NCBI GenBank assembly: GCA_964416445.1
Contig: CAYQEE010000001.1
Location: forward strand, 131,676 to 195,675
DNA: 64,000 nt
Reading direction: 5' to 3'
Source: an uncultured Gammaproteobacteria bacterium
GTDB taxonomy: Bacteria; Patescibacteriota; Microgenomatia; Levybacterales; UBA12049
How positions within the stretch are numbered: position 1 is the stretch's first letter; every line of letters begins with the position of its first letter. Positions 3,246 through 59,957 of the stretch are shown here, one piece after another. Below the pieces are notes generated by a model. It had not been told where the DNA came from, ran no database searches, and saw only the letters and a list, made by a program, of their open reading frames with translations. A program made the translations under genes and the position numbers.

Positions 3246-3249
3246 TTAT

Positions 3250-4332: not shown

Positions 4333-4335
4333 CAT

Positions 4336-14206: not shown

Positions 14207-14252
14207 ACAGATACAAAAAATATTCATTAAGCATCTTGAGACTCTCGCCATA

Positions 14253-15848: not shown

Positions 15849-15852
15849 AAAA

Positions 15853-17104: not shown

Positions 17105-17563
17105 ATGGTAATTGGACAGTATGAAGGAAAAGTCGGCGATAAATTTCAAGCAGCTTTTCCTAAAAAATTTCGAGATGAGTTAGGTAACAAACTCATCATG
17201 ACAAAAGGATTTGAAAACTGTTTAATAATTGTTTCTGAAGATCGTTGGAAAACCTTACTTGAAGGCACGAACGGAATACCTTTTACGAATCGGAATACAA
17301 GAGAATTACAACGATTTTTACTTGGCAACGCAACATTTGTCGAATTAGACAATAAAGGAAGATTTGTCATACCAGATTATTTACGGAAATATGCGCAATT
17401 AGGAGAGGACATTATCTACGCAGGAATTGAACGATTTGTTGAAGTTTGGAGTAAAGAAGCATGGGAAAAACATCAACAGCATTTGTCAGAAAATATTGAG
17501 TCAATTGCTGAAAGATTATCAAATAATCCTGCCCAAGAGAGGTCGGAGCGTTTGAATGAGTGA
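17105..17563 (+). CDS. mraZ: Transcriptional regulator MraZ
   Basis: Two SpoVT/AbrB-like halves, 'MVIGQYEGKVGDK ... DRW' and 'DNKGRFVIPDYLRKYA ... VEVWSKEAW'. It is the first gene of the dcw block. Confidence 0.85.
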   Translation: MVIGQYEGKVGDKFQAAFPKKFRDELGNKLIMTKGFENCLIIVSEDRWKTLLEGTNGIPFTNRNTRELQRFLLGNATFVELDNKGRFVIPDYLRKYAQLGEDIIYAGIERFVEVWSKEAWEKHQQHLSENIESIAERLSNNPAQERSERLNE

Positions 17564-18437: not shown

Positions 18438-18730
18438 AAAAGTTAGAATTTAGTATCCTTTGTATTGTCGTTATTGTCGCTTTAGCACTTATTTGTGTGA
18501 AAATAGGGGTTGATACGCTTTTTACCGCAAGTGGAGATGAATACAGTCAAATCCAAACAGAGACGCAAAAGCTACAAACTGAAAATATTATTCTGAAAGA
18601 GCGAATTCTTGCGCAATCATCCTATTTTAATATTGCGTCTGAAGCAGCCTCTCTCGGATTTATTCCGAGTGATGCAAAGACAAGTATTGTCCTAACAAAT
18701 CCAGCCGAACCATTTGCATATAACCAATGA
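18434..18730 (+). CDS. ftsL: Cell division protein FtsL-like (TM plus coiled coil)
   Basis: 98 aa with an N-terminal TM helix and a coiled-coil segment. It sits between rsmH and ftsI with 4-nt overlaps on each side. Confidence 0.55.
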   Translation: MKKLEFSILCIVVIVALALICVKIGVDTLFTASGDEYSQIQTETQKLQTENIILKERILAQSSYFNIASEAASLGFIPSDAKTSIVLTNPAEPFAYNQ

Positions 18731-20427
18731 GGTGGAGATATCTTCTCATTTTCATTTTATTTATTCTGTCATTCCTGAGTATATGGATGAAGCTTGGTTA
18801 TTGGCAATTAGTGAAAGCAGAAGAGCTGTCCAGTATGGGACAAGCGCAATATGCGCAATATTTAGAAATACCTCCGAATCGTGGTGATATTGAGACATCA
18901 GATACATTTCCATTTGTTACGAATAAGATGTCGTATCTTGTTTATGGCAATCCCAAATTAGTACAAGATGTTGCGAAACTGTCCCAAACGTTGGCTCCCT
19001 TTTTACAAAGTGATCCTGCATCGATAAGTGCAGAATTATCATTAAACCGTGTTTGGGTGCCATTAAGAACGGGAGTGGATAATACAGTGAAAGAACAAAT
19101 CGATGCGTTGCATATTCCTGGTATCGGTTTTCAAGAAACTCCATCTCGTTATTATCCTGAAGCTTCAATGGCAGCCCAATTAGTTGGTTTTGTTGGCAAA
19201 GATACTTTTGGTGAAGATAAAGGATATTTTGGGCTCGAAGGCTATTATGATTGGCAATTACGAGGAAGAGTTGGAAGAACAACAATTATTCATGACGCAT
19301 TTGGAAAACCGGTGCTTGCGAAATTAACAGAAAATTCAGGACAGCAAGATGGCAGAACACTTATTCTTCATGTCGACCGAAGGATTCAGTATTTGGTTGA
19401 ACAGCAATTATCAGCCGGTATTCAAAAATTTGGTGCACAGAGTGGCACTGCTGCTGTAATGGATCCCAAAACAGGTGGAATTCTTGCGATGGCGAGTTTT
19501 CCTTCATTTGATCCCCGTAATTTTTGGCAATACGACCAATCATTATATGTGAATCCTTTTATCACTGATACGTATGAGCCTGGTTCAACGTTTAAACCTT
19601 TAGTGATGGCTGCTGCATTTGATGCTGGCCTTTTGGTGCCAACAAGTACATGTCCTTCATGTTCAGGTCCTGCAGAAGTTGGCGGATATGCTATTCATAC
19701 ATGGGACGATAAGTACTTTCCCAATACAAATATGATCGATATTATGATCCACTCAGATAATACCGGAATGGTATATGTAGCACAAAAGCTTGGATTAAAT
19801 GGTATGCTGAGTTATTTACATAAATTTGGAATTGGTCAGCAAACAGGAATTGATTTACAAGGAGAATCATCGCCTGATTTAAAAGTACCTGATCAATGGT
19901 ATCCGGTTGATCTAGCGACAGCTGGGTTTGGGCAAGGATTAGCAGTAACTCCGATAGAACTCCTTGATGCTTTTTGCAGTATTGGCAATGGAGGAGCAAG
20001 AATGGAACCCCATGTAGTTTCACAAATTCATACTGCAGATGGGCAAACGATCACAATTCCTCCGAAAGTACTCGATCGACCAATTTCTCCCATTACCGCA
20101 AAAGTAATGACAGAAATATTAGTTGATACGGTAAATAAAGGAGAAGCAAGCTTCGCGAGATTGAAAGGGTACCGAATTGCAGGGAAAACAGGAACTGCAT
20201 CCATTGCAAAAGATGGACACTATGATAGTCGGAATACTATTGCCTCTTTTGAGGGATTAGTTCCGGCAGATAATCCGAAATTTTGTATGCTCGTTGTATT
20301 AAACCAACCGCAAGTGTCTATTTATGGTTCTGAAACAGCTGCCCCAATATTTTTTAATATTTCTCGTGATCTTTTAAATTATTATGGTATTATGCCAACA
20401 GAACCATTAACAACCACCAGTCAATAA
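18727..20427 (+). CDS. ftsI: Penicillin-binding protein (FtsI/PBP2-type transpeptidase)
   Basis: Transpeptidase motifs SxxK ('STFKP'), SxN ('HSDNTGM') and KTG ('GKTGTAS'). An N-terminal TM helix is present. Confidence 0.85.
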   Translation: MRWRYLLIFILFILSFLSIWMKLGYWQLVKAEELSSMGQAQYAQYLEIPPNRGDIETSDTFPFVTNKMSYLVYGNPKLVQDVAKLSQTLAPFLQSDPASISAELSLNRVWVPLRTGVDNTVKEQIDALHIPGIGFQETPSRYYPEASMAAQLVGFVGKDTFGEDKGYFGLEGYYDWQLRGRVGRTTIIHDAFGKPVLAKLTENSGQQDGRTLILHVDRRIQYLVEQQLSAGIQKFGAQSGTAAVMDPKTGGILAMASFPSFDPRNFWQYDQSLYVNPFITDTYEPGSTFKPLVMAAAFDAGLLVPTSTCPSCSGPAEVGGYAIHTWDDKYFPNTNMIDIMIHSDNTGMVYVAQKLGLNGMLSYLHKFGIGQQTGIDLQGESSPDLKVPDQWYPVDLATAGFGQGLAVTPIELLDAFCSIGNGGARMEPHVVSQIHTADGQTITIPPKVLDRPISPITAKVMTEILVDTVNKGEASFARLKGYRIAGKTGTASIAKDGHYDSRNTIASFEGLVPADNPKFCMLVVLNQPQVSIYGSETAAPIFFNISRDLLNYYGIMPTEPLTTTSQ

Positions 20428-22754: not shown

Positions 22755-24290
22755 ATGGTTACACAAAAATATAGTCTCCTTATTAGAGCAATTTTTATAT
22801 TATTTTTCTTCACTGTTGCTGCAATATACCCGCAAAGAAGTCGTGCTGCACAGCTATCATTATTGCCGTTGGGATGGCATTTAACTGCTTCTCGGGGACC
22901 TGCACAAGCGTACCAAACTGTTGATAGAACAATCTTGCAAAATGCGCAAACTATCGGTATAACCTATAATTTACATGGTCTTTGTCTTATTCCTGGTGAT
23001 GCATCAGCAATCATTTTTGATCAAAATGGTTGGAAATATATTTCTCTTGCGAATTATGGGAAAAATTGTTTTGAAGGTAATCAAACGGTAACAATTCCAC
23101 TTACACATTTTAAAGATATTGTAACGAATCAGCCATTGAACCCTAACCGTCCATTAACCGGTTCTCTTCATACGCGATTTTGGAGTACAAATGTCTATGC
23201 GGTTGATATTCGAACAATTGATGTTATAACAACACAACCAGTATCTCAAGCAAATGTTACACCATCACTTCCGGTAAGTACTGTCGTGCTTACACCACTG
23301 ACAACACCTTCACATCCTTCTCAAAAACCAACGTTGCAACCCAGTCTCCTTACCCCAACACCCGTTCCTGTAGACACCCTTCCTTCATGGACGATTAAAA
23401 GTGTTGATGCAATGAAATACACGAAGGATGCTGTTTGTAGTCCGGTTTCATCTTCTTGGATAGACACATGGGTAGCTAAGGCAGCAAATGTCGGTGCCAA
23501 TTTTATTGCCATTTCAACTCCTTATGATAATCCTGATTGTGGTGATAGTGTTGCCTATACAAAAATGTGGGTAAACGCTATTCGATCACATGGGTTGCAT
23601 GTATGGTTTCGACAAATGCCGTTAGCATTTGAAGGTATTTATAGAGTTCAGAAATCAACTTCGACGACCTATCTCGATCAGATTGCACATTATATTTTTG
23701 CAAATAAAAATAATTATCAATCGGGAGATATTTTCACACCAATACCTGAACCACAAAATGGAGGAATTGGCGGCGTAACGTATTGTCCAAATAATCAGTG
23801 TGAATTTTCCAGTAAAGAAGCATTCAATCAGTGGTTGCGCGACGCAATGACTATTTCAAAGAATGCTTTTACTCAGGCAGGTATTTCAGGAGTACAGGTT
23901 GGATTTTTTGGATTTGATGGCTTTATCGCATGGGGAGATCATAATCCAGATTGGCACGGAATTTTGGAAGATAAAACGGTACAGGCAATGGGGAATATTA
24001 CGATTGACCATTATCCAGAAGCAATTGGGGAAACAATGCAACAAGGTTTAGATTCATTACAAGCCAAGTACCCACGGATACCTATAATCATTGGTGAATG
24101 GGGCACTGTTACAGGTGGGAATGTGGTTGCGCAAGTGAAAACGAGTATGGGAGCAGCAAAAAGGCCGAATGTTATTGGATTTAATTATTGGCAGTTTGGC
24201 CCGGGAGGAAGTGGAGAACAGCTGATTAATAGTGATTTTTCTTCACGAGAACAATTCAGTGCTGTGCAATCATTTTATCAATTACGGTAA
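22755..24290 (+). CDS. Secreted protein with an N-terminal signal peptide, a Pro/Thr-rich linker and a C-terminal domain with clan GH-A-like glycoside hydrolase motifs
   Basis: Signal peptide 'LLIRAIFILFFFTVAAIYP', then a PT-rich linker at residues ~170-215. 'IIIGEWG' is a candidate nucleophile motif and 'IPEPQ' a candidate acid/base motif. Confidence 0.45.
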   Translation: MVTQKYSLLIRAIFILFFFTVAAIYPQRSRAAQLSLLPLGWHLTASRGPAQAYQTVDRTILQNAQTIGITYNLHGLCLIPGDASAIIFDQNGWKYISLANYGKNCFEGNQTVTIPLTHFKDIVTNQPLNPNRPLTGSLHTRFWSTNVYAVDIRTIDVITTQPVSQANVTPSLPVSTVVLTPLTTPSHPSQKPTLQPSLLTPTPVPVDTLPSWTIKSVDAMKYTKDAVCSPVSSSWIDTWVAKAANVGANFIAISTPYDNPDCGDSVAYTKMWVNAIRSHGLHVWFRQMPLAFEGIYRVQKSTSTTYLDQIAHYIFANKNNYQSGDIFTPIPEPQNGGIGGVTYCPNNQCEFSSKEAFNQWLRDAMTISKNAFTQAGISGVQVGFFGFDGFIAWGDHNPDWHGILEDKTVQAMGNITIDHYPEAIGETMQQGLDSLQAKYPRIPIIIGEWGTVTGGNVVAQVKTSMGAAKRPNVIGFNYWQFGPGGSGEQLINSDFSSREQFSAVQSFYQLR

Positions 24291-24310: not shown

Positions 24311-25696
24311 TTACCAGGAAAATGGTAGTTGAAATAATTTTTTATCAACGCAATATTGTAATCGGTTCAAAATTGCGGAAGGATACTCTTTTGAGAGAAA
24401 ATCAAACTTGGGGCGGTAATACATATTTGCCATAGAAAATTGCGATACATAGTGATACAGCGTTTCTACCGATGCTGTTAATGTTTGTTGAGAAGCAGTA
24501 ACTGGTGAAACATGCATATCATATCCTGTGGTATAGAAGGACTCGTTTTTTTGGTAAATATCATATGGCCAATAATGCTTCGCTAAATGAGAAGGGTATT
24601 GTATTGATAAGTCTGCTTGAGGACGTCCTGTGGTTGGGTCATTGAGTAAATTAAATAGCATAAGAGAAACGCCAATTGTTCCTATTGTGTAGGGGTTTTC
24701 CTTTCGTACTACTTTTTCATAAAAATCATTCATGCTTGGTAGCTGTTCAAACATCGTAAACGTCGAATTATATCCTAAACGGTTTGGGCAAAATTCGCCA
24801 AAATAGATTGCATCAGTTTCTTGGTCAATTAAGAGCGATGCATCCCAAATAAATAGTCCTTGGTGTTTTTTTGCCAATTCATCAACAATGGGTGGAAATG
24901 CAATATCATGAATTTTCCCTTGCATTGGTAACGGGAAAACAATATCTCCTGCAGAGCCAACTTGGAAGGAAATGTTACCGCTCCCGATGAATTTATTTTC
25001 TATCATGAGGTTCATTCCCAGTGGAACACCATCATAATAGATTTTTTCAGGAGTTATTTCGATGACTGAAGGGATTTTTTTTTCTAAAAAAAATCCAGAA
25101 TTTTCATATGCTTCTTGATGAATAAGTAGATTCTCAATAATGTGTTTTGTTGCCACGTGAGGATTTTCGGTGTGCGGAAGGAATGTAGGAATTGCTTCTG
25201 TTTGACTTTTAAGTACCCAGACATGTTTCGTATTTTTCAGAAATGATATCGCGTCTGCAACTCGTTGGAATGGTTGTTTCTCTGCAACCAGTAATTCTGA
25301 GTAATGCGAAAGAACAAAATCTTTTGCAAGGTTTCGATCAATTTCAAAAAGTCTATTTTGCATGGTAGGAAATTGACCATGAAATCCTAACTTCTTTACT
25401 TTTTCAGCGTAATAATATAAGGTATTAGATTCACAAATCACAAAATAATTTTGCGGATCAGGTATTTTTTTTAATTGACTAATCAAGGTGTCAGCAGGAA
25501 TTTTTTCAATCATATTGTCATATCGCATGAGGCGATGCTTTGTATCATAGCTATCTTCTTCGTTTTGTAATGCTTCAGAGGTGATAATGCCTTTATCATT
25601 TTGTACTTGTCCAACAATCACTTCATGTCCTTCTTGTTGTAAATGGTAAGCTAAAGCGAGTCCATTTCCTTCGTACGTAAATACAATATATTTCAT
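24311..25696 (-). CDS. PurD-like ATP-grasp ligase, paralog 1 of 2; function unknown
   Basis: A PurD-like N-domain 'MKYIVFTYEGNGLALAYHL'. The ATP-grasp core 'VWVLKSQTE ... FFLEKKIPSVIEITPEKIYYDG ... GSGNIS' is present. 'YFGEFCPNRLGYNS' corresponds to the PurD 'LEFNxRFGDPE' motif. Confidence 0.55.
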   Translation of the reverse strand: MKYIVFTYEGNGLALAYHLQQEGHEVIVGQVQNDKGIITSEALQNEEDSYDTKHRLMRYDNMIEKIPADTLISQLKKIPDPQNYFVICESNTLYYYAEKVKKLGFHGQFPTMQNRLFEIDRNLAKDFVLSHYSELLVAEKQPFQRVADAISFLKNTKHVWVLKSQTEAIPTFLPHTENPHVATKHIIENLLIHQEAYENSGFFLEKKIPSVIEITPEKIYYDGVPLGMNLMIENKFIGSGNISFQVGSAGDIVFPLPMQGKIHDIAFPPIVDELAKKHQGLFIWDASLLIDQETDAIYFGEFCPNRLGYNSTFTMFEQLPSMNDFYEKVVRKENPYTIGTIGVSLMLFNLLNDPTTGRPQADLSIQYPSHLAKHYWPYDIYQKNESFYTTGYDMHVSPVTASQQTLTASVETLYHYVSQFSMANMYYRPKFDFLSKEYPSAILNRLQYCVDKKLFQLPFSW

Positions 25697-25697
25697 A

Positions 25698-27101
25698 TTA
25701 AAAGGTTACCGGAAAAGGAAGGGTATATAATTTTTTCTGTAATCCATATCGTAAGCGATTTAATATTGATGTTGAGTAGTCCATTGATAAATAATCTGAT
25801 TTTGGTCGGTAATACACACCTGCTAGTGAAAAATTTTCAACATTTCGAAAAAGATGTCTGACTGATTCATCAATTGTTTTTCCAGATCCTGTAATTAAAG
25901 AAAGATACCAATCAGTGCCAACTATTCTCATCTTATCATTTTTCTTTTTTTTGTACACATCGAACGGCCAGACATCTTTTTGAATCATTTCCGGATAATT
26001 AATTGATGCTCCTGAAAGAATATGACGTTCATGGGGATCACGGGAAAGATTAAAGAGCGTGACTGAAGACCCAACGGTTCCTAAAGTAAATGGATTTTTC
26101 TTTTTGACAACTGATTCAAAAAAATGACTTGTTGATGGTAATTGAGCCAGTTCGGTAAAAAACGAATTGTATCCGACTCGATTTGGACAAAACTCACCAA
26201 AATAAACAATGCCTGTGTGTTTATCAATTAATAGTGATGCGTCCCAAATAAAAAGCCCTTTATGTCTTTTCGCTAATCGGTCCACAATTGGAGGAAAACA
26301 AATATCATGTATTTTACTTTCCATACTTATTGGAAAAACAAGATCTGCTGCACAGTAGGTTTGGATTGAAAGGTTACCACTACCAATCGGTTTATTCTCA
26401 AAATTAATGGTCATTCCTAATGGAACGCCGTCGTAATAAATTTTCTCCGGAGTGATTTCAACAACTGACGGAATTTTACGTTCAAGTATAAATCCGGCCT
26501 CTTCATAATAGTCTTTAAATGCTTCCATATTTTCAATGACTTGTCTTTTGGCAAGCTCGACATTATTCGTTGTCGGAACAAATGTTTGTGAGATTTCTGT
26601 TTTTCCTTTCAGTACCCAAACCGTTTGGGAATCTTTGAGAAATTTCTTTGCACGGTTTATTGTGCGAAATTCTTCTTTTTCAGCGATTTGTACTGATGGA
26701 TAATATTTTTTTACAAAATTTTTCGAATAGTCTCGGTCAACTTCAAATAAACGATCTTGTTCAGTAGGAAAAATTCCATGAAATCCTAAATCTTTTATTG
26801 CGTCAGCGTAACGAAAAAGATTATTAAAATCAAAGAAGACGAAATAATCGTGTGGATTTTTAATTCGACGCATTCGTTTAATAAGTGTATCAGCGGGAAC
26901 CCGTTCAACGATATTTTTATAGAGTGAAAGGCGACGTTTCTTAGTAAACGCACTTTCTTCGCCGTTTCTTCTTTTTTCTTCTTTAGTTAATGTTGATTTA
27001 AAATCATCAACATGTCCGATAATTACTTCATTTCCTTCATCCTGGAGATGTTTTGCTAGGGGGTAACCATAGCCATCAAACGTGAAGATAATATATTTCA
27101 T
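25698..27101 (-). CDS. PurD-like ATP-grasp ligase, paralog 2 of 2; a tandem duplicate roughly half identical to its neighbour
   Basis: Same motif set as paralog 1: 'VWVLKGKTE', 'FILERKIPSVVEITPEKIYYDGVPLGM', 'YFGEFCPNRVGYNS'. The gap to its neighbour is 1 nt. Confidence 0.55.
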   Translation of the reverse strand: MKYIIFTFDGYGYPLAKHLQDEGNEVIIGHVDDFKSTLTKEEKRRNGEESAFTKKRRLSLYKNIVERVPADTLIKRMRRIKNPHDYFVFFDFNNLFRYADAIKDLGFHGIFPTEQDRLFEVDRDYSKNFVKKYYPSVQIAEKEEFRTINRAKKFLKDSQTVWVLKGKTEISQTFVPTTNNVELAKRQVIENMEAFKDYYEEAGFILERKIPSVVEITPEKIYYDGVPLGMTINFENKPIGSGNLSIQTYCAADLVFPISMESKIHDICFPPIVDRLAKRHKGLFIWDASLLIDKHTGIVYFGEFCPNRVGYNSFFTELAQLPSTSHFFESVVKKKNPFTLGTVGSSVTLFNLSRDPHERHILSGASINYPEMIQKDVWPFDVYKKKKNDKMRIVGTDWYLSLITGSGKTIDESVRHLFRNVENFSLAGVYYRPKSDYLSMDYSTSILNRLRYGLQKKLYTLPFPVTF

Positions 27102-27162
27102 TAATAACTTATAATGTTAAACGAATCTCAGCGGGAAATCAATATTAGATTTACTCTTCCTG

Positions 27163-28443
27163 GTGTTCTTTTGCTATCAGGGATATAATACGATCATGTG
27201 GCAACAAGCTAAAAATATTTATCACTTACTTATTTCCTTTTTTGTGAATCTTTCTCAAGGATTTCCAGGGCGGAAATTAATTGTCATTGGGGTTACAGGG
27301 ACAAGTGGGAAAACAACCACGTCGCATATGCTCTATGAAGTTCTGAGAGCGTCAGGAAAACAAGTTGCATTAATTTCGTCAATAAAAGCAGTAATTGGCG
27401 GAAAAGATATTGATACAGGATTTCATGTTACAACGCCAGGCCCGGATGTATTACCAAAATATTTACATCAAGCAGTCGAAGCTCATGATCACTATGTTGT
27501 TCTTGAAGTTTCTTCTCATGCGCTTGATCAAAATCGAGCAGCATTTATTCCTTTTCATATAGGAGTTTTAACGACGCTTGCCCATGAACACTTGGATTAC
27601 CATAAGACATTTCTCAATTATGCAAAAGCGAAATTTAAGTTACTCCACAGAGCAAAAACTGCTGTAATTCCTGAGAAAAGTATTCCGCTTGATATTAAAA
27701 AAGGGGTACATTATGAAAAACTTAAAAAGGTCGTAACGTTTGGATTGTCACAAGGACAAGTAACTCAATCAGAATGGCAATTGCGCCTGAAAGTCCCAGG
27801 AGATTATAATCTCCTGAATGCACTTGCAGCAGCTGCAGTTGGAGAACTTCTCCATATTCCCCATGATAGTATTAAAAAAACGTTAGAAAACTTTTCTGCA
27901 ATTCCGGGGAGGTTTGAAGAAATTCCTAATGCATTTGGTTTTCGAGTTATTATTGATTTTGCTCATAAACCCGATGCGTTAGAAGAAGTTTTGAAAACAG
28001 CACGAAAACAAGTAACAACAAATGGGAGAATTATTGTCATGTATGGATGTGCAAGCCAGCGTGATGTATTAAAACGGCCTATTATGGGAAAAATAAGTGG
28101 AGAACTTGCTGAAATCACTGTTTTAACTGATGAAGATCCACGACTGGAAAATTCTATGAAAATTATCAACGAGATAGCACAAGGTTGTCTTGAAGCACAC
28201 GCAAAAGAAATATCCGCGAGAGCGCATCAACCTTCAACAAAAACACATGTTTTTTATAAAATACCAAACCGAAAAGAAGCAATTATCTTTATCATAACGA
28301 AACTTGCAAGAAAAGATGATATTATACTGTTTTGTGGAAAAGGTCATGAACAATCGATGAATTATCATGGAATTGAAACACCTTGGAATGAACATCTTGT
28401 TGTTGCTAATGCATTAGCCATGTATGGAGAAAAAAAACATTAA
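27163..28443 (+). CDS. MurE-like Mur ligase lacking the N-terminal UDP-binding domain
   Basis: P-loop 'GVTGTSGKTTTS' sits at residue ~45. 'LAHEHLDYHKTF', 'GRFEEI', 'DFAHKPDALEEVL' and 'GCASQRDVLKRPIMG' are Mur ligase motifs. C-terminal 'GKGHEQ' is MurE-like. Only 61 nt separate it from the divergent upstream gene, so there is no room for a canonical N-domain. Confidence 0.6.
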   Translation: MFFCYQGYNTIMWQQAKNIYHLLISFFVNLSQGFPGRKLIVIGVTGTSGKTTTSHMLYEVLRASGKQVALISSIKAVIGGKDIDTGFHVTTPGPDVLPKYLHQAVEAHDHYVVLEVSSHALDQNRAAFIPFHIGVLTTLAHEHLDYHKTFLNYAKAKFKLLHRAKTAVIPEKSIPLDIKKGVHYEKLKKVVTFGLSQGQVTQSEWQLRLKVPGDYNLLNALAAAAVGELLHIPHDSIKKTLENFSAIPGRFEEIPNAFGFRVIIDFAHKPDALEEVLKTARKQVTTNGRIIVMYGCASQRDVLKRPIMGKISGELAEITVLTDEDPRLENSMKIINEIAQGCLEAHAKEISARAHQPSTKTHVFYKIPNRKEAIIFIITKLARKDDIILFCGKGHEQSMNYHGIETPWNEHLVVANALAMYGEKKH

Positions 28444-29857
28444 ACATATTCATTTTATTGGTATAAAAGGAGTAGGAATGGCTCCACTCGCAATTATTGC
28501 AAAGGAAGCTGGATTTCAAGTCTCTGGATGTGATGTCGCTGATTCGTTTATTACTGATACGCCCTTGCGAACAGCTGGCATACATCCACTGGTTGGATTC
28601 CATCCATTACATTTGAAAGGTGTCGATCTTGTTATAACAACGGGAGCACATAACGGGAAGAATAATCCTGAGGTATTGCAAGCAGATAGACTGCATATCC
28701 CAATTCGTATGCAAGGTCAAGCAGTTGGTGAGTTTATGAAAGGTGACTTGTTTCATAGAAAGTTAAAGGGAATATCGGTTGCCGGTTGTCATGGTAAAAC
28801 GACTACGACTGCTTTAGTAGCAACACTTTTAAAAAACGGGCAGTATGATCCTTCGTTTGTTATTGGAACTGGAGAAATTCCCTCGCTTGGAGGATCTGGT
28901 CATTATGGTCATGGTGATTACTTTATTGCAGAAGCCGATGAATATGCTACCGATCCTCAGGGTGATCGAACTCCAAAGTTTCTTTGGCATCATCCGGAGA
29001 TTGCTATTATTACGAATATAGAATTTGATCATCCAGATTTGTATAAAAATATCGAACAAACTGAAAATGCTTATGCTCAGTTTGTGAAAAATATCCATTC
29101 GAATGGTGTGCTTATCGCGAACGGAGATGATGAACATGTGCGAAAAATTCTGAAAAATGTTTCATGTAGAACTACACTTTTCGGTTTTAATTCGAATAAT
29201 GATTATGTTCTACAAAATATCCGCATTCGTGACAGGAAGACATTTTTTACTCTTTCAGATAAAAAAGGATTTGATCAAGAATTCGCCGTCAATGTTATTG
29301 GTACTCATAACGCATTTAATGCAACCGCTGCACTTTTTGTCGCGAAAGAGGTAGGTATGTCGGACAGTGATATCCAGTCGGGATTATTTTCCTTTCATGG
29401 AACAAAAAGACGATTTGAATATAAAGGAAAGCTTGTTTCTGGTGCGCTTCTCTATGACGATTACGCCCATCATCCGACAGAAATTCAGGCAACTCTTGCG
29501 GCGCTGCATGCAGCTCACCCAAGCAGTAACATTGTCGCTATTTTCCAACCGCATACCTTCAGTAGAACTAAAATAATGTTCGATGATTTTATTAACTCAT
29601 TTTCTGATGCACGGATTGTTTTGCTAACTCAAATATATGCCTCAAAACGCGAAGCTCCTGATGGATCCATTTCTTCAGAAATGCTTGTTGCAGCCTTGCA
29701 AAAGGCAGGCAAAAAGGTTGTTTTTGTACCACAGCTCAACGATGTGGTAGAATACGTACACAAACAACATTGGGATGAATCCTATTGTCTTATTACCTTA
29801 GGCGCAGGAGACATCTATAAAATAGAAGATCAATTAACCAAAGAAGAACTGCTTTAG
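28424..29857 (+). CDS. murC: UDP-N-acetylmuramate--L-alanine ligase
   Basis: 'HFIGIKGVGMAPLAIIAKEAG' is the MurC Rossmann N-domain. The P-loop 'GCHGKTTTT' is present. Full three-domain length of 477 aa. Confidence 0.85.
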   Translation: MEKKNIKHIHFIGIKGVGMAPLAIIAKEAGFQVSGCDVADSFITDTPLRTAGIHPLVGFHPLHLKGVDLVITTGAHNGKNNPEVLQADRLHIPIRMQGQAVGEFMKGDLFHRKLKGISVAGCHGKTTTTALVATLLKNGQYDPSFVIGTGEIPSLGGSGHYGHGDYFIAEADEYATDPQGDRTPKFLWHHPEIAIITNIEFDHPDLYKNIEQTENAYAQFVKNIHSNGVLIANGDDEHVRKILKNVSCRTTLFGFNSNNDYVLQNIRIRDRKTFFTLSDKKGFDQEFAVNVIGTHNAFNATAALFVAKEVGMSDSDIQSGLFSFHGTKRRFEYKGKLVSGALLYDDYAHHPTEIQATLAALHAAHPSSNIVAIFQPHTFSRTKIMFDDFINSFSDARIVLLTQIYASKREAPDGSISSEMLVAALQKAGKKVVFVPQLNDVVEYVHKQHWDESYCLITLGAGDIYKIEDQLTKEELL

Positions 29858-29863
29858 CCTATT

Positions 29864-31192
29864 ATGGACATATTTAAAGTGACCGGTGGTATACCGTTAC
29901 GAGGAACAACATCCGTTTCAGGTGCCAAGAACGCTGCATTGAAAGCCGTTGTTGCAGCGTGTTTAACGTCTGAAGAAGTTATCATTCATAACATTCCGCT
30001 GATTTCAGATTTTTACTATATGGTAGACATTATGAAGCTTTTGGGAGCTTCCGTTGTTATAAAAGACCATACCGTTCATGTACGCATGAAAAAATTTCAT
30101 CGATCGACCATTCCTCTTGATATTGCCGCTCAAATGCGAACTTCCGCAATGTTTATTGGCCCGCTCCTCGCTCGTACGGGGAAAGCATTAATACCCAATC
30201 CTGGAGGGTGTCGGCTTGGAGCACGTCCCATAGATCGAACAATTAATGGGGTGCGACATTTGAATGCAAAAATTGCTTATAACAGCGAAGACGGTTATTT
30301 TCATGCACAAACAAGAAAACTCAAAGGTACAATGTATACTTTTGAAAAGAACACCCATGTCGGTACAGAAACGATGATTATTGCGGCAGCCCTTGCAGAA
30401 GGTAAAACAATACTGAAAAATGCCGCAGAAGAGCCTGAAATTGATGATCTGATTGAACTATTAAATAATATGGGTGCAAATGTGATGCGTACCGCAAAAA
30501 GAGAAATAACGATTGTTGGGGTAGAAAAGCTTCATGGAGCTACCATTACTATTCACCCTGATCGTAATGAAATTGTTACTTTTGCCATTGCTGCTATTTT
30601 AACAAAAGGTGATATTTTTATTAATGACGCACATACCGTCGATTTACAAGCGTTTCTTACTGCAGTAGATCAAGCAGGTGCAGGATACGAAAAAACAGAG
30701 AAAGGAATTAGATTTTATGCAAAAGATACAATTCAAGCAACGAATTTGACAACGTCAGTATATCCAGGATTTATGACGGACTGGCAAGCGCCATGGGCAA
30801 TTCTTATGACTCAAGCACAAGGGACATCAACAATACATGAGACAGTATTTGAAAATAAGTTTGGCTACATTTATGATTTACGAAAAATGGGTGCTCATAT
30901 CGATTTTTACAATCCTCAAGTTCAAAATCCTGAAGCAGTGTATAATTTTAATTTATCAGATGATCGACCTGATTATTATCATGCTATCAAGATTTTTGGT
31001 CCAACCAAGCTGCATAATGCGATAGTCACGATGATTGATATTCGCGCAGGAGCCGCTGTTGTATTAGCTGCATTAGCTGCAAAAGGTACGTCGACAATTT
31101 TTGGTATTGAAAAGCTTGATAGAGGATATGAAAAATTTGAGAAACGATTACGAAGTCTTGGTGCAAAAGTAAAACGAATGAGACAACCATGA
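29864..31192 (+). CDS. murA: UDP-N-acetylglucosamine 1-carboxyvinyltransferase
   Basis: 'MDIFKVTGGIPLRGTTSVSGAKNAALKAVVAACL' is the canonical MurA N-terminus. Size is 442 aa. Confidence 0.9.
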   Translation: MDIFKVTGGIPLRGTTSVSGAKNAALKAVVAACLTSEEVIIHNIPLISDFYYMVDIMKLLGASVVIKDHTVHVRMKKFHRSTIPLDIAAQMRTSAMFIGPLLARTGKALIPNPGGCRLGARPIDRTINGVRHLNAKIAYNSEDGYFHAQTRKLKGTMYTFEKNTHVGTETMIIAAALAEGKTILKNAAEEPEIDDLIELLNNMGANVMRTAKREITIVGVEKLHGATITIHPDRNEIVTFAIAAILTKGDIFINDAHTVDLQAFLTAVDQAGAGYEKTEKGIRFYAKDTIQATNLTTSVYPGFMTDWQAPWAILMTQAQGTSTIHETVFENKFGYIYDLRKMGAHIDFYNPQVQNPEAVYNFNLSDDRPDYYHAIKIFGPTKLHNAIVTMIDIRAGAAVVLAALAAKGTSTIFGIEKLDRGYEKFEKRLRSLGAKVKRMRQP

Positions 31193-31920
31193 AAGATAAC
31201 ATTGCAGCAATTATTCTTGCAGCGGGAAGAGGTAAACGAATGGAATCAACTGATAAAAATAAAGTTGTCTTTCCTTTAAAAGGAAAACCAATGATTGCGT
31301 ATACTATTCGTTTACTTAACGAGTTGGATATTTCTGAAATTATCGTTGTTGTGGGTTTTGCAAAAGAATCAGTGTATGAAGTATTAGGAACATCTGTACA
31401 GTATGCTGAACAAAAAGAACAGCGAGGAACAGCGGATGCGGTATGGGAGGGTCTAAAAAAAGTATCTGATTCGGTATCACATATTTTGGTATTGAATGGT
31501 GACGATTCTGCATTCTACACGAAAGAAGTAGTACAAGCGCTTATAACAAAGCATATTCATTCTTCGGATGTCATAACATTATTGACAACAAAACGAGAAA
31601 ATCCATATGGAATTGGAAGAATAGTCAGGACAAAAAACAAAAAATTAGTTAAAATAGTGGAAGAGAAGGATGCAAGTGAAGAAGAAAAAATGATAACTGA
31701 AGTCAATGTTGGGTGTTATCTCTTTACAAGTTCGTATCTTAAGAGAGCGCTTCCCAAATTAGAAAAAAGTTCTATCACCGGCGAGTATTATTTAACAACG
31801 TTGGTTGATATGGCGCTGCAAGAAAAGTTACCAGTTGAAACAGTTACTGATCCGAATTTACGATGGCATGGAATCAATACGAAGGAAGATTTACAAAAGG
31901 CAGAAACCTATTTTATGTAA
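31189..31920 (+). CDS. GlmU-like N-terminal sugar nucleotidyltransferase domain, as a stand-alone gene
   Basis: 'AAIILAAGRGKRMES' is the G-x-G-x-R NTase motif. At 243 aa it matches the GlmU pyrophosphorylase domain only. Confidence 0.6.
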   Translation: MKDNIAAIILAAGRGKRMESTDKNKVVFPLKGKPMIAYTIRLLNELDISEIIVVVGFAKESVYEVLGTSVQYAEQKEQRGTADAVWEGLKKVSDSVSHILVLNGDDSAFYTKEVVQALITKHIHSSDVITLLTTKRENPYGIGRIVRTKNKKLVKIVEEKDASEEEKMITEVNVGCYLFTSSYLKRALPKLEKSSITGEYYLTTLVDMALQEKLPVETVTDPNLRWHGINTKEDLQKAETYFM

Positions 31921-31926
31921 TAGATC

Positions 31927-32568
31927 ATGAATAATACATTTGCGCCAGAGCACTATTTTGATTTAACAAATTGTACATTTGCTGATATCTTTCAAGGGAA
32001 AGAAGCAGTATGGGAAGTTTTAGGAAATTTGGGAGACTTCTTACAAAAACAATTTACCGACAAAAAGATCATTGCGAATTATAAGGATAGTACCAACATT
32101 TATGTCGGTGAAGGAACGATTATTGAAGAAGGCGCGTATATTAAAGGTCCAGCAATTATTGGAAAAAATTCATTTATTGGTCATGCCGCTTATTTACGGC
32201 AAAATTGTCTTTTTGATGATGATGTCTCAATTGGACATGGAAGTGAAGTAAAAAATAGTATTGTCTTTTCCCATTCTGCAATTGCTCATTTGAATTATAT
32301 TGGCGATAGTATATTTGGACACAATGTTAATATCGGTGGTGGAGCGAAAACAGCTAATTTCCGATTAGATGGAAGGACGATTCCTGTTAGAGAGGGAGAT
32401 AACAAGATTGATACGGGGCTCACGAAATTTGGAGCGATTTTGGGTGATGAAACAAAAATAGGAGTTAATGCTGTTTTGAATCCGGGAACTATTCTTGGAA
32501 AACGAGTCCATGTTTTTCCTCTCAAGCTGGTATTTGGAACCCATGGTGAGGGAACAGTTATTAAATAA
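31927..32568 (+). CDS. Left-handed beta-helix (hexapeptide-repeat) acyltransferase, probably the separated GlmU acetyltransferase half
   Basis: Hexapeptide repeats are visible, for example 'IGDSIFGHNVNIGGGAKTANF'. It begins 6 nt after the NTase gene. Confidence 0.55.
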   Translation: MNNTFAPEHYFDLTNCTFADIFQGKEAVWEVLGNLGDFLQKQFTDKKIIANYKDSTNIYVGEGTIIEEGAYIKGPAIIGKNSFIGHAAYLRQNCLFDDDVSIGHGSEVKNSIVFSHSAIAHLNYIGDSIFGHNVNIGGGAKTANFRLDGRTIPVREGDNKIDTGLTKFGAILGDETKIGVNAVLNPGTILGKRVHVFPLKLVFGTHGEGTVIK

Positions 32569-32572
32569 GTAT

Positions 32573-33256
32573 ATGAACCATTACCAGAAAAAAATTATAT
32601 TGTTTGATATTGATTATACATTATTTAACGCACAACACTTTCGCGAATCATTTATGCAACTCCTTGCAAATAGAATTCCCCATAGCAATAAAAATGAATT
32701 ACTTACCATACTTCAGGAAGTATACGATGAAGAAAAAATGAAAACAAGTTTTTTTGATCCTCGATCGTTTTTAGCGCTTCTTGAAAAAAGAATACCTTAT
32801 TTATCAGATAAAAATTTACTTGAGAAAGCAATTATGAATGAAGCGTTACTTGAAGAAGCATTGTACAAGGAGTCAAAAGAAGTTTTGTCTTTACTTGCTA
32901 AAAATAACGATGTTTTGTTAGGAATATTTTCTTGGGGTAATATTCCTGTTCAAAAAGCAAAAATTAAACTCCTTGATGCATATTTTCATCGTGAACATAT
33001 TCATATCGTTGAATTTGATAAAAAAAATGCATTGCCTAATATATTAGCAAAATATCGTAACTGGGACATTTATCTGATCGATGATTATCAGGAGGTGTTG
33101 CTAGAGGCTAAAAAACTGTTGCCTGAAATTCATACCATTTGGATCAAACGTCCTGAAACAGAAGGGAAACGGGAAATATTTGATTATTTCACCCCAGATA
33201 GTATAATAAGGTCCTTGTCGGAGATTATTCCGTATTTTCAAGGTAAACAACGATAA
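32573..33256 (+). CDS. HAD-superfamily hydrolase; start at the internal ATG at 32573
   Basis: The DxDxT motif 'ILFDIDYTLF' lies near the N-terminus. The longer track ORF would overlap the previous gene by 74 nt. Confidence 0.55.
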   Translation: MNHYQKKIILFDIDYTLFNAQHFRESFMQLLANRIPHSNKNELLTILQEVYDEEKMKTSFFDPRSFLALLEKRIPYLSDKNLLEKAIMNEALLEEALYKESKEVLSLLAKNNDVLLGIFSWGNIPVQKAKIKLLDAYFHREHIHIVEFDKKNALPNILAKYRNWDIYLIDDYQEVLLEAKKLLPEIHTIWIKRPETEGKREIFDYFTPDSIIRSLSEIIPYFQGKQR

Positions 33257-33257
33257 T

Positions 33258-35018: not shown

Positions 35019-35020
35019 CT

Positions 35021-35713: not shown

Positions 35714-37317
35714 CCATTGCTTCGTATTTCCACACTATTGTTTTCGGGGCCTTTATCCTTTGGGTACTAAGGAATGTCCTTTTTTGGGTTGGTTTGTGGC
35801 AAGATAAAGAATATCGATTAGATAGATTAGTGGTTCATTTGACAGAAACCGTACAAGGGAGACATGTATTTACTTCATGGGGTAATAGATTAAAATGGTT
35901 ATTTTTTTTAGGATATATCTTTGTTGCTTTCTATGATACCTATGCGACCTGGTATGAATTATTGCTCGGATTATTCTTTATTCTCCAAGCATTATTTATT
36001 ATCAAAGATGGATGGTATCATCGGATAAAACGTCCAGTTTTTACTTCCAAAGCACTTGTCCTCATTGTGCTGAGTCTATTATTTATAAGTGTTTTTTTGA
36101 TTTACCCGCTGATGAATACTTTCTTTTGGTTATTATTTGTCGACCGAACACTCCCTTTTGTTGTTGCACTTTTTGTCTTTTTTATGGCATTTCCGACAGA
36201 GGTTGCCGAAGATATTAAAATTGGCAATGCAAAAAAAAAGATGCAGCGGTTAGAAAAAATATTGGTTATTGCGGTAAGCGGTAGTTATGGGAAAACATCA
36301 ACAAAAGAGTATATTGCACAGGTACTATCGCATAAATACAAAGTTGTTAAAACACCTGGATCAAATAATACTCCTGTTGGTATAGCAAATACGATCTTGC
36401 ACAAAATACATAATGATACGGAAGTATTTGTGGTTGAAATGGGTGCTTATAAACTCGGAGAAATTGCCGAATTAACTCAAATTGTTGCTCCATCAATCAG
36501 TGTTACTACTGCTATCAGTGATCAACATATATCTCTCTATGGAAGTTTACAAAATGTTATTAATTCTGAATATGAACTCATTCACGCGTTACCAAAAAAT
36601 GGTTTGGCATTGTTTAATGGGAACAGTAAAAATATAGAAAAACTTTTTGATCGAGCAAAAATTGAGAAGGTGTGGTATCAAGTATTTACTCGAAAGCCAA
36701 AAGACAATCCGCGAATTGGAGCATATCATGTTCAAGCGAGTATTCGCGGAGTAACGTTTACTGCATTGTTACATGGAAAAGAATTCTTGTGTAAAACACC
36801 ATTGTTTGGTGTCCATGTGGTTGAAAATATTTTACCTGCTCTATTTTTAGCAGATCGTTTAGGATTTAGCAAAAAAGAAATGAGTAAAGCAATAGCAGAA
36901 TTGCAACCTCCTGCACAAACGATGATCAAACGTGAGTTGCGCAATGGTGCGTTTGCAATGGATGACACATTTAATGCAAGTCCTGAGTCGGTTTTTTCAG
37001 CAATGGATTTTTTAAAGCTTTCACCGAAAAAGAAAATATTTGTCTTAGCTCCTCTTACCGAACTTGGCAGTGAAGCAAAAAAAAGACATTTTCAGGTAGG
37101 AGAAAAAGCAAGCGGAATATGTGATTTCTTATTTTTACTCAACAGTAATTTTTCATCTGAAATCTCGAAAGGCGTTATTGAAGGAAAGGGAACTTGTCAC
37201 GTACAAATTGCTCGGCCTGAAGAAATAGCAAAAATCATTGCAAAACTTACGAAAAAAGGAGATATGATAATCTTTGAAGGAAAAGAATCAAAAATGGTTA
37301 TGAATAAATTATTATGA
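35701..37317 (+). CDS. MurF-like UDP-MurNAc-pentapeptide synthetase catalytic and C-terminal domains, fused to a ~190-aa N-terminal polytopic membrane domain
   Basis: MurF motifs: 'AVSGSYGKTSTKEY', 'GSNNTPVGIANTIL', 'VVEMGAYKLGEIAEL', 'MDDTFNASPESV'. The first ~190 aa have about 5 hydrophobic helices and replace the usual MurF domain 1. Confidence 0.65.
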   Translation: MGAVTIASYFHTIVFGAFILWVLRNVLFWVGLWQDKEYRLDRLVVHLTETVQGRHVFTSWGNRLKWLFFLGYIFVAFYDTYATWYELLLGLFFILQALFIIKDGWYHRIKRPVFTSKALVLIVLSLLFISVFLIYPLMNTFFWLLFVDRTLPFVVALFVFFMAFPTEVAEDIKIGNAKKKMQRLEKILVIAVSGSYGKTSTKEYIAQVLSHKYKVVKTPGSNNTPVGIANTILHKIHNDTEVFVVEMGAYKLGEIAELTQIVAPSISVTTAISDQHISLYGSLQNVINSEYELIHALPKNGLALFNGNSKNIEKLFDRAKIEKVWYQVFTRKPKDNPRIGAYHVQASIRGVTFTALLHGKEFLCKTPLFGVHVVENILPALFLADRLGFSKKEMSKAIAELQPPAQTMIKRELRNGAFAMDDTFNASPESVFSAMDFLKLSPKKKIFVLAPLTELGSEAKKRHFQVGEKASGICDFLFLLNSNFSSEISKGVIEGKGTCHVQIARPEEIAKIIAKLTKKGDMIIFEGKESKMVMNKLL

Positions 37318-38549
37318 AACGAGTAAATGCTATTGGGTTATCACCAAATACGAGCATGCGCGATGTTCTTATTGCCTGCAAACAAATGATTAACCCACGA
37401 ACCTATCAAAAAGGCCCTGCGATAACCACTATCGAAAAATGGTTTCTCTCGTATTTTCAGGTAGGATCTGCGGTTTCGTTTTCTCATGGACGAACTGCAC
37501 TCTATGCGATCATGAAAGCGCTTGAAATTGGAAGAGGTGATGAAGTTATTTTACAAGCGTTTACTTGTGTAGTTGTTCCTAATATGATTGTTGCTTTGGA
37601 TGCACAACCAATTTATGCGGATATTACGAAAAACTTGACGATAGATCCTCGTGATGTTGAAAAAAAAATTACCAAAAAAACAAAAGCAATTATTGTACAA
37701 CATACGTTTGGTATTCCTGCAGATATGGAGGCACTTATGGCCATTGCAAAGAAACATAAGATATCGCTTATTGAAGATGTTGCTCATACCATTGGAGGTA
37801 CCTATAAGGGGAAAAAATTGGGAACGTTTGGTATAGCAAGTATTTTTAGTTTTGGAAGAGATAAAGCATTCTCCTCGGTATTTGGAGGAATTGCCATTAC
37901 GAATGATACCGATCTTGGAGAAAAATTGCGAAATTTTCAAAAAAATATTCCTTTTCCATCAAAACAATGGATAGCACAACAACTCTTTCATCCGATTGCT
38001 TTTTCCGTTATTTTGCCTACATATAATTCGGGGTTTGGAAAGCTTATCCTTGTTGTGTTGCAGAAATTACATTTCTTATCCTTTCCAGTAAGTCGTGATG
38101 AGCGAAAGGCACTCTTTTCTCAATCATTGCTGAAGCGATTTCCTAATGCTCTTGCGATACTTGCATTGCAACAACTTGAGCAGCAAGAAAAATTTAATTC
38201 AAAAAGAATAGCAATTAGCCAAAAATATCAAGAAGTATGCCAAGTGAAAGGTATTTCGATTATGAGCAATGAACGATATCCTTACCTTAGATTTCCTCTT
38301 CGAGTAGCAAACCCCCAAGCAATGCGCTCATTTTTTAAAGCGAAAAGGAATATTTATTTAGGCGATTGGTATGCACATGTTCTTGATCCCAGAGGGAGTG
38401 ATTTTACAGCAGTTTCCTATACAAAAGGATCTTGTCCTGTCGCTGAAGCTATTGCCTGTCAAATTATCAACTTGCCAACATACCCATCGATGTCAGACAA
38501 TGATGTGACTGAGGTAATTGATCTCCTCAAACAATATGATACAAATTAA
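37314..38549 (+). CDS. DegT/DnrJ/EryC1/StrS-family PLP-dependent sugar aminotransferase
   Basis: Family motifs 'ILQAFTCVVVPNMI', 'IIVQHTFGIPADM' and 'SFGRDKAF' (PLP lysine region). Confidence 0.75.
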   Translation: MKRVNAIGLSPNTSMRDVLIACKQMINPRTYQKGPAITTIEKWFLSYFQVGSAVSFSHGRTALYAIMKALEIGRGDEVILQAFTCVVVPNMIVALDAQPIYADITKNLTIDPRDVEKKITKKTKAIIVQHTFGIPADMEALMAIAKKHKISLIEDVAHTIGGTYKGKKLGTFGIASIFSFGRDKAFSSVFGGIAITNDTDLGEKLRNFQKNIPFPSKQWIAQQLFHPIAFSVILPTYNSGFGKLILVVLQKLHFLSFPVSRDERKALFSQSLLKRFPNALAILALQQLEQQEKFNSKRIAISQKYQEVCQVKGISIMSNERYPYLRFPLRVANPQAMRSFFKAKRNIYLGDWYAHVLDPRGSDFTAVSYTKGSCPVAEAIACQIINLPTYPSMSDNDVTEVIDLLKQYDTN

Positions 38550-39552: not shown

Positions 39553-39625
39553 ATATAAACAGATTTTATTGTTCTGCTTTGATCACTTGCAAAACCGTAG
39601 TGCATTTGTTAGGATCAAATTCACT

Positions 39626-47053: not shown

Positions 47054-47434
47054 TTATTTTATAAGGGATTTTAAGTGAGCTCCAATAACTTTCGTTGAAA
47101 TAACACCAATGATATTTCCTTCTTTCATAACCATCAATCTTCGAATTTTATATTTTGTTAAAATTTCTGCAGCTTCTAACACATCGGTGTTGTGATCAAT
47201 CATAATCAAAGGATAATTTTTAATTCGATCAACCTCAATATTATCTGCCTCTTTGCCACGAGCAAGTACTCGTTCAATAATATCTCCTTGAGTAACAATA
47301 CCGACAATATCGTCGTTTGTTCCGACAAGAAGAGAGCCTACTTTTTTTTCGGCCATCAATCGTGCTGCATCTCTGGCAGTAGCTTGTGGGCTAATATAAT
47401 ACAGCTGGGTATACATGATATCTTTTACTTTCAT
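47054..47434 (-). CDS. CBS-domain pair protein
   Basis: Two CBS motifs, 'VGSLLVGTNDDIVGIVTQGDI' and 'IRRLMVMKEGNIIGVIS'. Confidence 0.75.
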   Translation of the reverse strand: MKVKDIMYTQLYYISPQATARDAARLMAEKKVGSLLVGTNDDIVGIVTQGDIIERVLARGKEADNIEVDRIKNYPLIMIDHNTDVLEAAEILTKYKIRRLMVMKEGNIIGVISTKVIGAHLKSLIK

Positions 47435-59953: not shown

Positions 59954-59957
59954 ACTT

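Follow-up and report, generated by a model that had tools for sequence, protein, structure and literature searches.

A tandem pair of PurD-like ATP-grasp proteins beside peptidoglycan-precursor genes belongs to an undescribed family that is distinct from PurD

What do two adjacent ATP-grasp genes contribute when they lie back to back with peptidoglycan-precursor genes in a region that lacks ddl, murD, and murB? This question is raised by a 64,000-nucleotide stretch of contig CAYQEE010000001.1 (assembly GCA_964416445.1, positions 131,676 to 195,675) from a Levyibacteriota-like genome of the candidate phyla radiation, hereafter called the window. According to the list of open reading frames (ORFs), gene A (24311..25696, minus strand) encodes 461 aa and gene B (25698..27101, minus strand) encodes 467 aa. 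Both are transcribed divergently from an operon for a MurE-like protein, MurC, and MurA (27163..31192, plus strand), which is considered here as context only. The original prediction, made from the sequence alone, described A and B as PurD-type ATP-grasp paralogues that substitute for Ddl, add to the stem peptide, or N-acylate an amino sugar. We found that A and B have the fold of PurD, the glycinamide ribonucleotide (GAR) synthetase, yet are not PurD; they belong to a separate family, termed the T family here. With moderate confidence, we regard them as two active carboxylate-amine ligases with a joint amide product that is possibly envelope-related, and probably not as a replacement of Ddl or MurD. 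A role of the pair in cell-wall peptide synthesis is hypothetical.

The paralogy of the two genes is clear. BLASTP aligned A and B end to end with 243 of 463 residues identical (52%), 71% positives, and an E value of 0, and both proteins contain the motifs on which the prediction had been based, namely MKYI(V/I)FT(Y/F), LFIWDASLLID, and YFGEFCPNR(L/V)GYNS. B is the first gene of the pair and the slow-evolving paralogue, A is the second and the faster-evolving one. The junction between the stop codon of B and the start codon of A (25694..25700, minus strand) reads TAA-T-ATG. This gap of a single base implies, as far as can be read from the sequence, that A and B form one transcription unit, and the two genes are therefore probably translationally coupled. 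The divergent orientation relative to the murE-like operon was likewise borne out, with an AT-rich spacer of 61 bp (27102..27162, no strand) between the two units. This spacer contains the sequence TATAAT and is presumed to be the promoter region of both units. Scans for consensus promoters and terminators around A and B returned no more sites than in shuffled sequence.

To describe the fold, we used an AlphaFold model of B (pLDDT 90.2, pTM 0.89). In a Foldseek search against the PDB, the best 15 matches were all PurD structures, with E values of 2e-20 to 4e-16; they aligned over the full length (461-491 columns) at 13-15% identity and a TM score of about 0.6. Biotin carboxylases ranked after PurD, and no Ddl structure occurred among the 50 best PDB matches, which rules out a Ddl-like fold. 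Neither A nor B had a Pfam match, whether to Dala_Dala_lig or, at E<=1, to GARS_N, GARS_A, and GARS_C, or any match in PHROGs or PADLOC. The only NCBIfam signal came from the purD model TIGR00877, with 18.4 bits for B and 11.4 bits for A against a cut-off of 288. A profile built from 26 sequences reached PurD chains in the PDB weakly (E=0.009-0.17), but in a collinear manner. The collinear elements are the motif E..[KR]...K.F, the central Lys strand, the catalytic loop E-F-x-x-x-R, and the C-terminal YR..D. Within the catalytic loop, EFCPNRxGYNS takes the place of the PurD signature EFNxRxGDPE and aligns to the YTIEFNCRFGDPE segment of 5vev. Thus, the predicted PurD-type, non-Ddl-type nature of A and B holds at the level of the fold; as a statement of family membership it fails, because score, catalytic-loop signature, and context all disagree with it. 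Sequence thresholds, motif, copy number, and context together rule out membership in PurD, the automatic name phosphoribosylamine-glycine ligase that some databases give to homologues of A and B notwithstanding.

A closer comparison with PurD reveals the same multi-domain ATP-grasp architecture from end to end. Unlike PurD, however, the B domain of A and B lacks the glycine-rich loop, as read from the alignment, and residues 31-66 of the B model have the appearance of an inserted, charged helical segment within the N domain. The family, moreover, has no purine-pathway context, and it differs from PurD by having several copies per genome, phage members, inteins, and a partner gene, termed f1. 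With Ddl, the proteins share their ATP-grasp superfamily as well as the presumed ligase chemistry, and in the window they adjoin Mur ligase genes. Ddl is, however, about 150 residues shorter, and the distribution of the A/B family does not appear to follow the absence of Ddl.

We defined the T family by a length of about 460-470 aa, nine invariant residues, and the motifs TPEKxYYDG, WDAS, and GEFCPNR; A and B both show these motifs and all nine residues. The family comprises 482 clusters at 90% identity; in a set of 1.84 billion proteins, clustering at 50% left 519 representatives (E<=1e-3). As this number is too small for the bulk of canonical PurD, the family is separate from PurD. In an alignment of 46 sequences with identities to the first sequence down to 26%, E120, R123, K165, E215, E235, D287, E303, R308, and R449 are invariant, and C305 is nearly so. 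The nine residues of B are aligned and identical in A, and none of them was flagged when A was compared with the rest. The features expected of the ATP-grasp superfamily, i.e., the fold together with K165, D287, E303, and R308, are present in both proteins.

The core clade of the family, with about 50% identity among its members, extends over Levyibacteriota, other Patescibacteria, Gammaproteobacteria (Coxiellaceae and Aquicella lusitana), Verrucomicrobia including Udaeobacter, Anaerolineales (Chloroflexi), Nitrospirota, and an acidobacterial metagenome-assembled genome (MAG). Such identity across distant phyla and the patchy spread are best explained by presumed horizontal transfer. The gene is usually present as a single copy, but single MAGs hold two to four. 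Four representatives (P0160, P0188, P0203, and P0206) carry LAGLIDADG inteins, and the insertion site lies between F304 and C305, i.e., GEF|C of EFCPNR, so that the N-extein ends with GEF and the next residue is Cys. Such a position is typical of inteins in essential ATP-binding sites, and the EF|CPNR loop is likely to be functionally critical; the intein position is thus good indirect evidence that members of the T family may be regarded as active enzymes. Apparent domain fusions in longer members proved to be inteins or extensions without a Pfam match.

The T family has no membership in Pfam, NCBIfam, PHROGs, or PADLOC. Literature searches on PurD-like ATP-grasp proteins, on ATP-grasp proteins in the peptidoglycan synthesis of the candidate phyla radiation (CPR), and on phage homologues retrieved no description of it; a paper on pseudomurein concerns a CarB-like ATP-grasp protein and not the T family (PMC11915815). 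The family, its f1 partner, the phage link, the inteins, and the CPR tandem pair are therefore absent from the libraries and papers searched, while the superfamily and its chemistry are known.

In a neighbour-joining tree, A-type and B-type sequences form sister clades within one group that is restricted to Patescibacteria. The duplication therefore took place before at least five lineages diverged. Identity to B of the window is 67-76% for B-type orthologues, whereas A-type orthologues reach only 48-56% identity to A; the closest database relatives are 81% and 60% identical, respectively. A thus evolves about twice as fast as B while keeping the catalytic set, and the substitutions G166S, T248V, G453C, and Y459F are specific to the A type. 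The order B-A is found in the window and at loci L006/L007, L008/L009, L103, and L105, the order A-B at L104, L109, and L110. In all of these loci (L006, L007, L008, L009, L103, L104, L105, L109, and L110) the two genes are separated by 1-7 nt or overlap by 4 nt. The persistence of the pair in both gene orders argues for a joint function. Only a B-type copy occurs at L005, L010, and L101, and L102, which comes from the same sample as the window contig, represents a third, single-copy paralogue that is accompanied by f1. In related MAGs, three or four copies are present.

The neighbourhoods of the pair vary between lineages. In the window and at L105, the pair is divergent from murE-like, murC, and murA; the two loci are syntenic on both sides, and their B copies are 70% identical. 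At L105 (8001-13423), B and A belong to a tight four-gene operon that continues with an ATP-grasp_3 protein (424 aa) and a pyridoxal-phosphate (PLP) decarboxylase (446 aa). The ATP-grasp_3 protein had no sequence match in the PDB. The decarboxylase, a divergent fold-type-III PLP enzyme, matched PDB entries with E values of 1e-14 to 1e-22, namely diaminopimelate (DAP), ornithine, and D-ornithine/D-lysine decarboxylases, including N-citrylornithine decarboxylase and BtrK. Neither gene is present at the syntenic position of the window. At L008 and L009, the pair is divergent from a GT4-GT4-NTP_transferase-Bac_transf-DUF4012 block. The same block corresponds to 962-7103 of the window, where it lies 17 kb from A and B, whereas it directly adjoins the pair at L008/L009. 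The neighbour at L006 and L007 is an MJ0043_C protein, and that at L005 is weakly MGDG_synth-like. L103 is flanked by SET-domain genes, a gene for a 504-aa protein, and Asparaginase_2, GNAT, MR_MLE, and M20 genes. L104, L109, and L110 have a radical-SAM gene downstream and a Spermine_synth gene 5 kb upstream. L101 has a SET gene and AdoMet_dc nearby, and at L101 and L010 MurT/GatD genes are 4-6 kb off. The SET proteins encoded beside the T genes at L101 (9401-9820) and L103 (10791-11938) are 47% identical, and the two loci are otherwise different.

Outside the tandem clade, Udaeobacter and Nitrospirota loci (L050, L052, and others) carry a gene for a left-handed beta-helix (LbH, hexapeptide-repeat) protein about 0.6 kb upstream of the T gene, and the LbH protein of the Udaeobacter loci is 38% identical to the product of 31927-32568 in the window. 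A sulfotransferase-like gene, assigned by reading the sequence, also lies upstream in the Udaeobacter loci. The Aquicella copy is located between a PNP_UDP_1 gene and genes for a toxin (Ntox11) and restriction-modification, with Ku/LigD present as well. When related CPR genomes were compared for synteny, as the original prediction had proposed, adjacency to mur genes was seen only in the window and at L105, and the other lineages had other neighbours. Counting these two loci as one, this is one of about seven independent contexts in the tandem clade. The proposal of a Ddl replacement or a stem-peptide addition thus rests on a single neighbourhood and is not supported. The family also occurs in Gammaproteobacteria, Verrucomicrobia, Chloroflexi, and phages, where its usual neighbour is the small helical protein f1 and not a mur gene. 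Such a distribution cannot be reconciled with Ddl or MurD substitution as the ancestral role; recruitment within a single clade is possible.

Divergent T homologues, 25-45% identical over their best aligned segment, were detected at 18 loci of 17 distinct phage contigs from IMG/VR; two of the loci cover one contig. A tblastn search of 50,697 GenBank phage records with the window protein and two divergent homologues yielded no T homologue; a plasmid-borne gene was considered and rejected, as plasmids gave no match. The BFVD fold search returned generic ATP-grasp matches only (TM<=0.38). In the phages, the T gene is the last gene of the late/structural block, near the lysis genes, and in some contigs the gene just downstream encodes an M23-like lysin.

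ORF clustering revealed that f1, a gene for 131-182 aa, directly follows the T gene in 28 of 75 genome loci (e.g., L012, L018, and L024). Its product has the motif MRYDDVGDY...LHEFIEY...ID.FD...H..A...E. In several phage contigs, the T gene is followed by v4 (124-137 aa), which is a homologue of f1 according to tblastn (E 1e-8 to 3e-7) and a joint hidden Markov model. Together, f1 and v4 (124-182 aa) share the motif RYDxxGD[YW]...HExxE...FD...H...E; examples are L102:2834-3301 and, from phages, L089:2344-2721 and L091:11454-11867. The f1 protein had no match in Pfam or PADLOC and no fold match in the PDB, and its model consists of a helical core of moderate confidence (pLDDT 64.5). A guess that f1 is MazG-like or a metallohydrolase was not supported by any PDB fold match, and a known anti-phage defence component was rejected because PADLOC had no match for A, B, or f1. 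T-f1 fusions were not found, and f1 is absent from all six frames of the window and from every locus of the tandem clade. The f1 protein is likely to be a functional partner or a substrate. In other lineages, a hydrolase gene lies beside the T gene, namely Amidohydro_2 in Verrucomicrobia and Peptidase_M42 at L085.

Because of the fold and the conserved residues, we infer that A and B are catalytically active. By analogy with PurD, each protein would turn a carboxylate into an acyl-phosphate from which the acyl group reaches an amine, presumably by the same chemistry, so that the product would be an amide in which an amino acid or a small carboxylate is joined to an amine. We propose that a T gene was duplicated long ago in one clade of Patescibacteria, that the copies were kept adjacent and coupled, and that A and B most likely cooperate, be it as a hetero-oligomer or by ligating the same product in two successive steps. 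In the lineage of the pair, the amide would then probably feed an envelope precursor, such as an amino sugar, a sugar nucleotide, or a peptide side group. Decoration or supply of such a precursor appears most plausible in view of the operon at L105 and of the sugar-nucleotide, glycosyltransferase, and mur genes that recur nearby. The hints in this direction comprise the mur operon, the glycosyltransferase cluster, MurT/GatD, the upstream LbH gene, and the phage T gene near lysis genes. N-acylation of an amino sugar, the second proposal of the original prediction, fits both a PurD-like chemistry and the sugar-nucleotide neighbours. As the natural acceptor of PurD is an amino sugar phosphate, this role is at least as plausible as one in the stem peptide, and equally hypothetical.

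Several observations weigh against an envelope-related product. The neighbours that point to the envelope are inconsistent, with unrelated genes in Aquicella and at L103, L104/L109, and L106, and chance alone should bring about such proximity at an appreciable rate in genomes as compact as those of the CPR. Most T members are single-copy and paired with f1, which has no recognisable fold and is missing from the window; given this pairing, the ancestral function of the family may be unrelated to the envelope. The SET-domain and radical-SAM neighbours could indicate protein or nucleotide modification instead. Furthermore, the position of the Mg-binding Asn of PurD differs (EFCPNR versus EFNxR), and the chemistry may not be identical.

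The absence of ddl, murD, and murB, which formed the starting point of the original prediction, was confirmed by Pfam and PDB sequence searches for these 64 kb. Pfam scans or precomputed calls covered 52 of the 53 non-overlapped window ORFs of at least 120 aa, leaving out 47054..47434 (126 aa); four more listed ORFs sit inside longer ORFs of the opposite strand and are not counted among the 53. No Dala_Dala_lig or MurB domain occurred among the covered ORFs. PDB sequence searches identified only three Mur ligases in the window, a MurE-like protein, MurC, and a MurF-like protein, and hence no MurD. The gene upstream of mraY, just past the window end, encodes at least 528 aa without a PDB match and is not a Mur ligase. 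The Pfam annotation contained no pur genes in the window.

According to Pfam, the division and cell-wall genes of the window are arranged in three dispersed blocks. The first block (17105-20427) comprises mraZ, rsmH, a small ORF, and ftsI, and the third (58649-63553, minus strand) comprises mraY, ftsW, murG, a gene for 144 aa, and ftsA. The long block in between (27163-40774) contains murE-like, murC, murA, NTP_transferase, LbH, an unknown gene, glmS, a hydrolase gene, murF-like, DegT, FemAB, and ftsZ. Within it, the genes for the MurE-like ligase (27163..28443, 415-426 aa), MurC (28424..29857, PDB match with E 7.5e-79), and MurA/EPSP_synthase (29864..31192) lie on the plus strand. They are followed on the same strand by a split GlmU-like pair (31189-32568) of an NTP_transferase protein (243 aa) and an LbH protein (213 aa; 31927-32568). 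The gene for the MurF-like ligase (35701-37317, plus strand, 538 aa) precedes DegT (37314..38549), and a FemAB-family gene (38518-39552) comes after DegT and just before ftsZ. Residues 35-397 of the MurE-like protein align with residues 99-457 of Thermotoga MurE (4bub), so that the UDP-binding N-terminal domain is absent; the orthologue at L105 has 398 aa. For a MurE, absence of domain 1 is uncommon, and the protein may bind a different substrate. The MurF-like protein carries an N-terminal extension of about 180 aa without a PDB sequence match, and only its residues 177-530 align to MurF.

How do other explanations compare with a pair of ligases that forms an amide? The original idea that A and B replace Ddl or MurD, by supplying a dipeptide or by extending the stem peptide of UDP-MurNAc with an amino acid, draws on a window with most dcw genes and without Ddl, MurD, and MurB. 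It also draws on the presence of MurF, which requires a dipeptide donor, and on the pair being divergent from murE-like/murC/murA in both the window and L105. The missing UDP-binding domain of the MurE-like protein hints at an unusual pathway, and the genes close to the pair at L103 include those for an MR_MLE-family enzyme, an Asparaginase_2, and an M20 peptidase. Nevertheless, we consider this replacement decidedly unlikely. The contig has at least 260 kb, of which the window covers 64 kb, and ddl, murD, and murB may be located outside it; the fold is PurD-like with no Ddl among the 50 best PDB matches; and mur adjacency is confined to one of the approximately seven independent contexts. In addition, the T family is found in phages and in Gammaproteobacteria, Verrucomicrobia, and Chloroflexi, three groups that generally possess canonical Ddl and MurD. 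A different combination, in which A and B are the first recognised members of a new ligase family that moves between phages and bacteria and that, after duplication in the CPR clade, took on a part in making peptidoglycan or envelope precursors, is unlikely as well. The recruited pair could, for example, assemble or install a side group of the amino-acid or amine type, or provide a dipeptide. If true, the locus would represent a version of the cytoplasmic peptidoglycan pathway that has so far escaped recognition, with a MurE lacking the UDP-binding domain and dcw clusters lacking murD and ddl. That A or B, or both, are the ordinary GAR synthetase of purine biosynthesis is extremely improbable, even though the best structural matches are PurD, the weak profile matches are collinear, and some databases assign the PurD name automatically. 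The original prediction had already called a purine role unlikely, and this view is corroborated by scores of 18.4 and 11.4 bits against 288 for TIGR00877, the missing GARS Pfam match, and the absence of pur genes from the window. Furthermore, single small genomes hold two to four copies, EFNxRxGDPE is replaced by EFCPNRxGYNS, and the phage copies reside in late structural blocks.

A possible, though doubtful, alternative is that T and f1 constitute a phage-derived module for phage-host interaction or for protein or nucleic-acid modification, that the CPR copies are domesticated, and that the mur neighbourhood is incidental. This would account for the fixed position of T homologues at the end of the late block on the 17 IMG/VR contigs, with an f1 homologue in several and an M23-like lysin in some of them, for the inteins, and for the horizontal transfer suggested by about 50% identity across distant phyla. 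The Aquicella copy among Ntox11, restriction-modification, and Ku/LigD genes and the SET-domain genes that adjoin T genes at L101 and L103 point in the same direction, as does, we presume, the resemblance of EFCPNRxGYNS to the motif ExSPRxH[ND][ST]G of PurK/PurT, enzymes that act on ribonucleotides. However, neither PADLOC nor PHROGs provided a match, the 50,697 GenBank phage records and the plasmids were negative, the surroundings of the CPR copies are housekeeping genes without signs of a prophage, and a position in the late operon is unusual for nucleotide-metabolism genes. It is unlikely that A and B make a free small molecule unrelated to the envelope, for instance a compound akin to a dipeptide, an aminoacyl-polyamine, or a related amide. 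The L105 operon with its third ATP-grasp protein and a fold-type-III PLP decarboxylase that matches N-citrylornithine decarboxylase and BtrK would suit such a product. The Amidohydro_2 and Peptidase_M42 proteins encoded beside other T members could reverse the amide bond, and polyamine genes occur near three tandem-clade loci (AdoMet_dc at L101, Spermine_synth at L104/L109, and the decarboxylase at L105). The window itself, however, lacks such partner genes, each association is limited to a single lineage, and the late-gene position in phages is left unexplained.

The L105 operon also invites comparison with pathways that combine an ATP-grasp ligase and a PLP decarboxylase. BtrJ and BtrK belong to the butirosin pathway, and N-citrylornithine decarboxylase belongs to siderophore pathways. 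At L105, the pair likewise shares an operon with a third ATP-grasp protein and a decarboxylase, and the matches of the latter to BtrK and N-citrylornithine decarboxylase are about as good as that to DAP decarboxylase, a similarity at the superfamily level only. In contrast to these pathways, the window has neither the third ligase nor the decarboxylase, and no carrier protein or NRPS-independent siderophore (NIS) synthetase was seen. A second analogy is offered by the C-terminal domain of Cj1438 from Campylobacter jejuni, which is reportedly an ATP-grasp amidoligase that decorates surface glycans. The proposed formation of an amide on a sugar of an envelope polymer and the recurrent glycosyltransferase and sugar-nucleotide neighbours resemble this case as an analogy, not as a claim of membership.

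The T enzyme of about 470 residues is thus strongly conserved (about 50% identity across phyla) and lies outside all family libraries tested. With several copies in tiny CPR genomes, members in many uncultured phages, and inteins in the catalytic loop, it gives enzymology a well-defined object of study. Should the product be a component of the envelope or of peptidoglycan, the enzyme would represent a new step of cell-wall chemistry in uncultivated bacteria and a route by which phages could alter the cell wall; if not, a new substrate class for PurD-like ligases would be at hand. The definition of the family also corrects the automatic name phosphoribosylamine-glycine ligase, which is now spreading in databases.

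Other parts of the window showed additional features. The gene convergent with A (22755-24290, plus strand) encodes a 511-aa protein without a Pfam match, whose C-terminal 298 aa are 64% identical to the product of the L105 gene at the same position. Read from the sequence, its N-terminus resembles a signal peptide, and a linker rich in Pro, Thr, and Ser is present. A polysaccharide cluster (23-7103, plus strand) comprises GT2, GT4, GT4, NTP_transferase/ManC-like, Bac_transf, and DUF4012 genes. The region 14001-16000 is compositionally odd, with a GC content of 0.41 versus about 0.36 elsewhere and an AT skew of -0.24; it covers an ORF (14253-15848, minus strand) for 531 aa without a Pfam match. 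Adjacent genes for a dockerin type I protein (524 aa) and a cohesin protein (188 aa) at 44905-47042 (plus strand) are of the cellulosome type and seem unexpected in a CPR-like genome. A 145-aa protein (49757-50194, plus strand) contains a single-strand annealing domain of the Rad52/Rad22 family, which is known mainly from phages and eukaryotes. Finally, the window contains two genes of the FtsW/RodA/SpoVE family, one (61479-62603, minus strand) within the mraY-ftsW-murG block and the other (54578-55663, plus strand) close to ileS and the gene for ribosomal protein L21.

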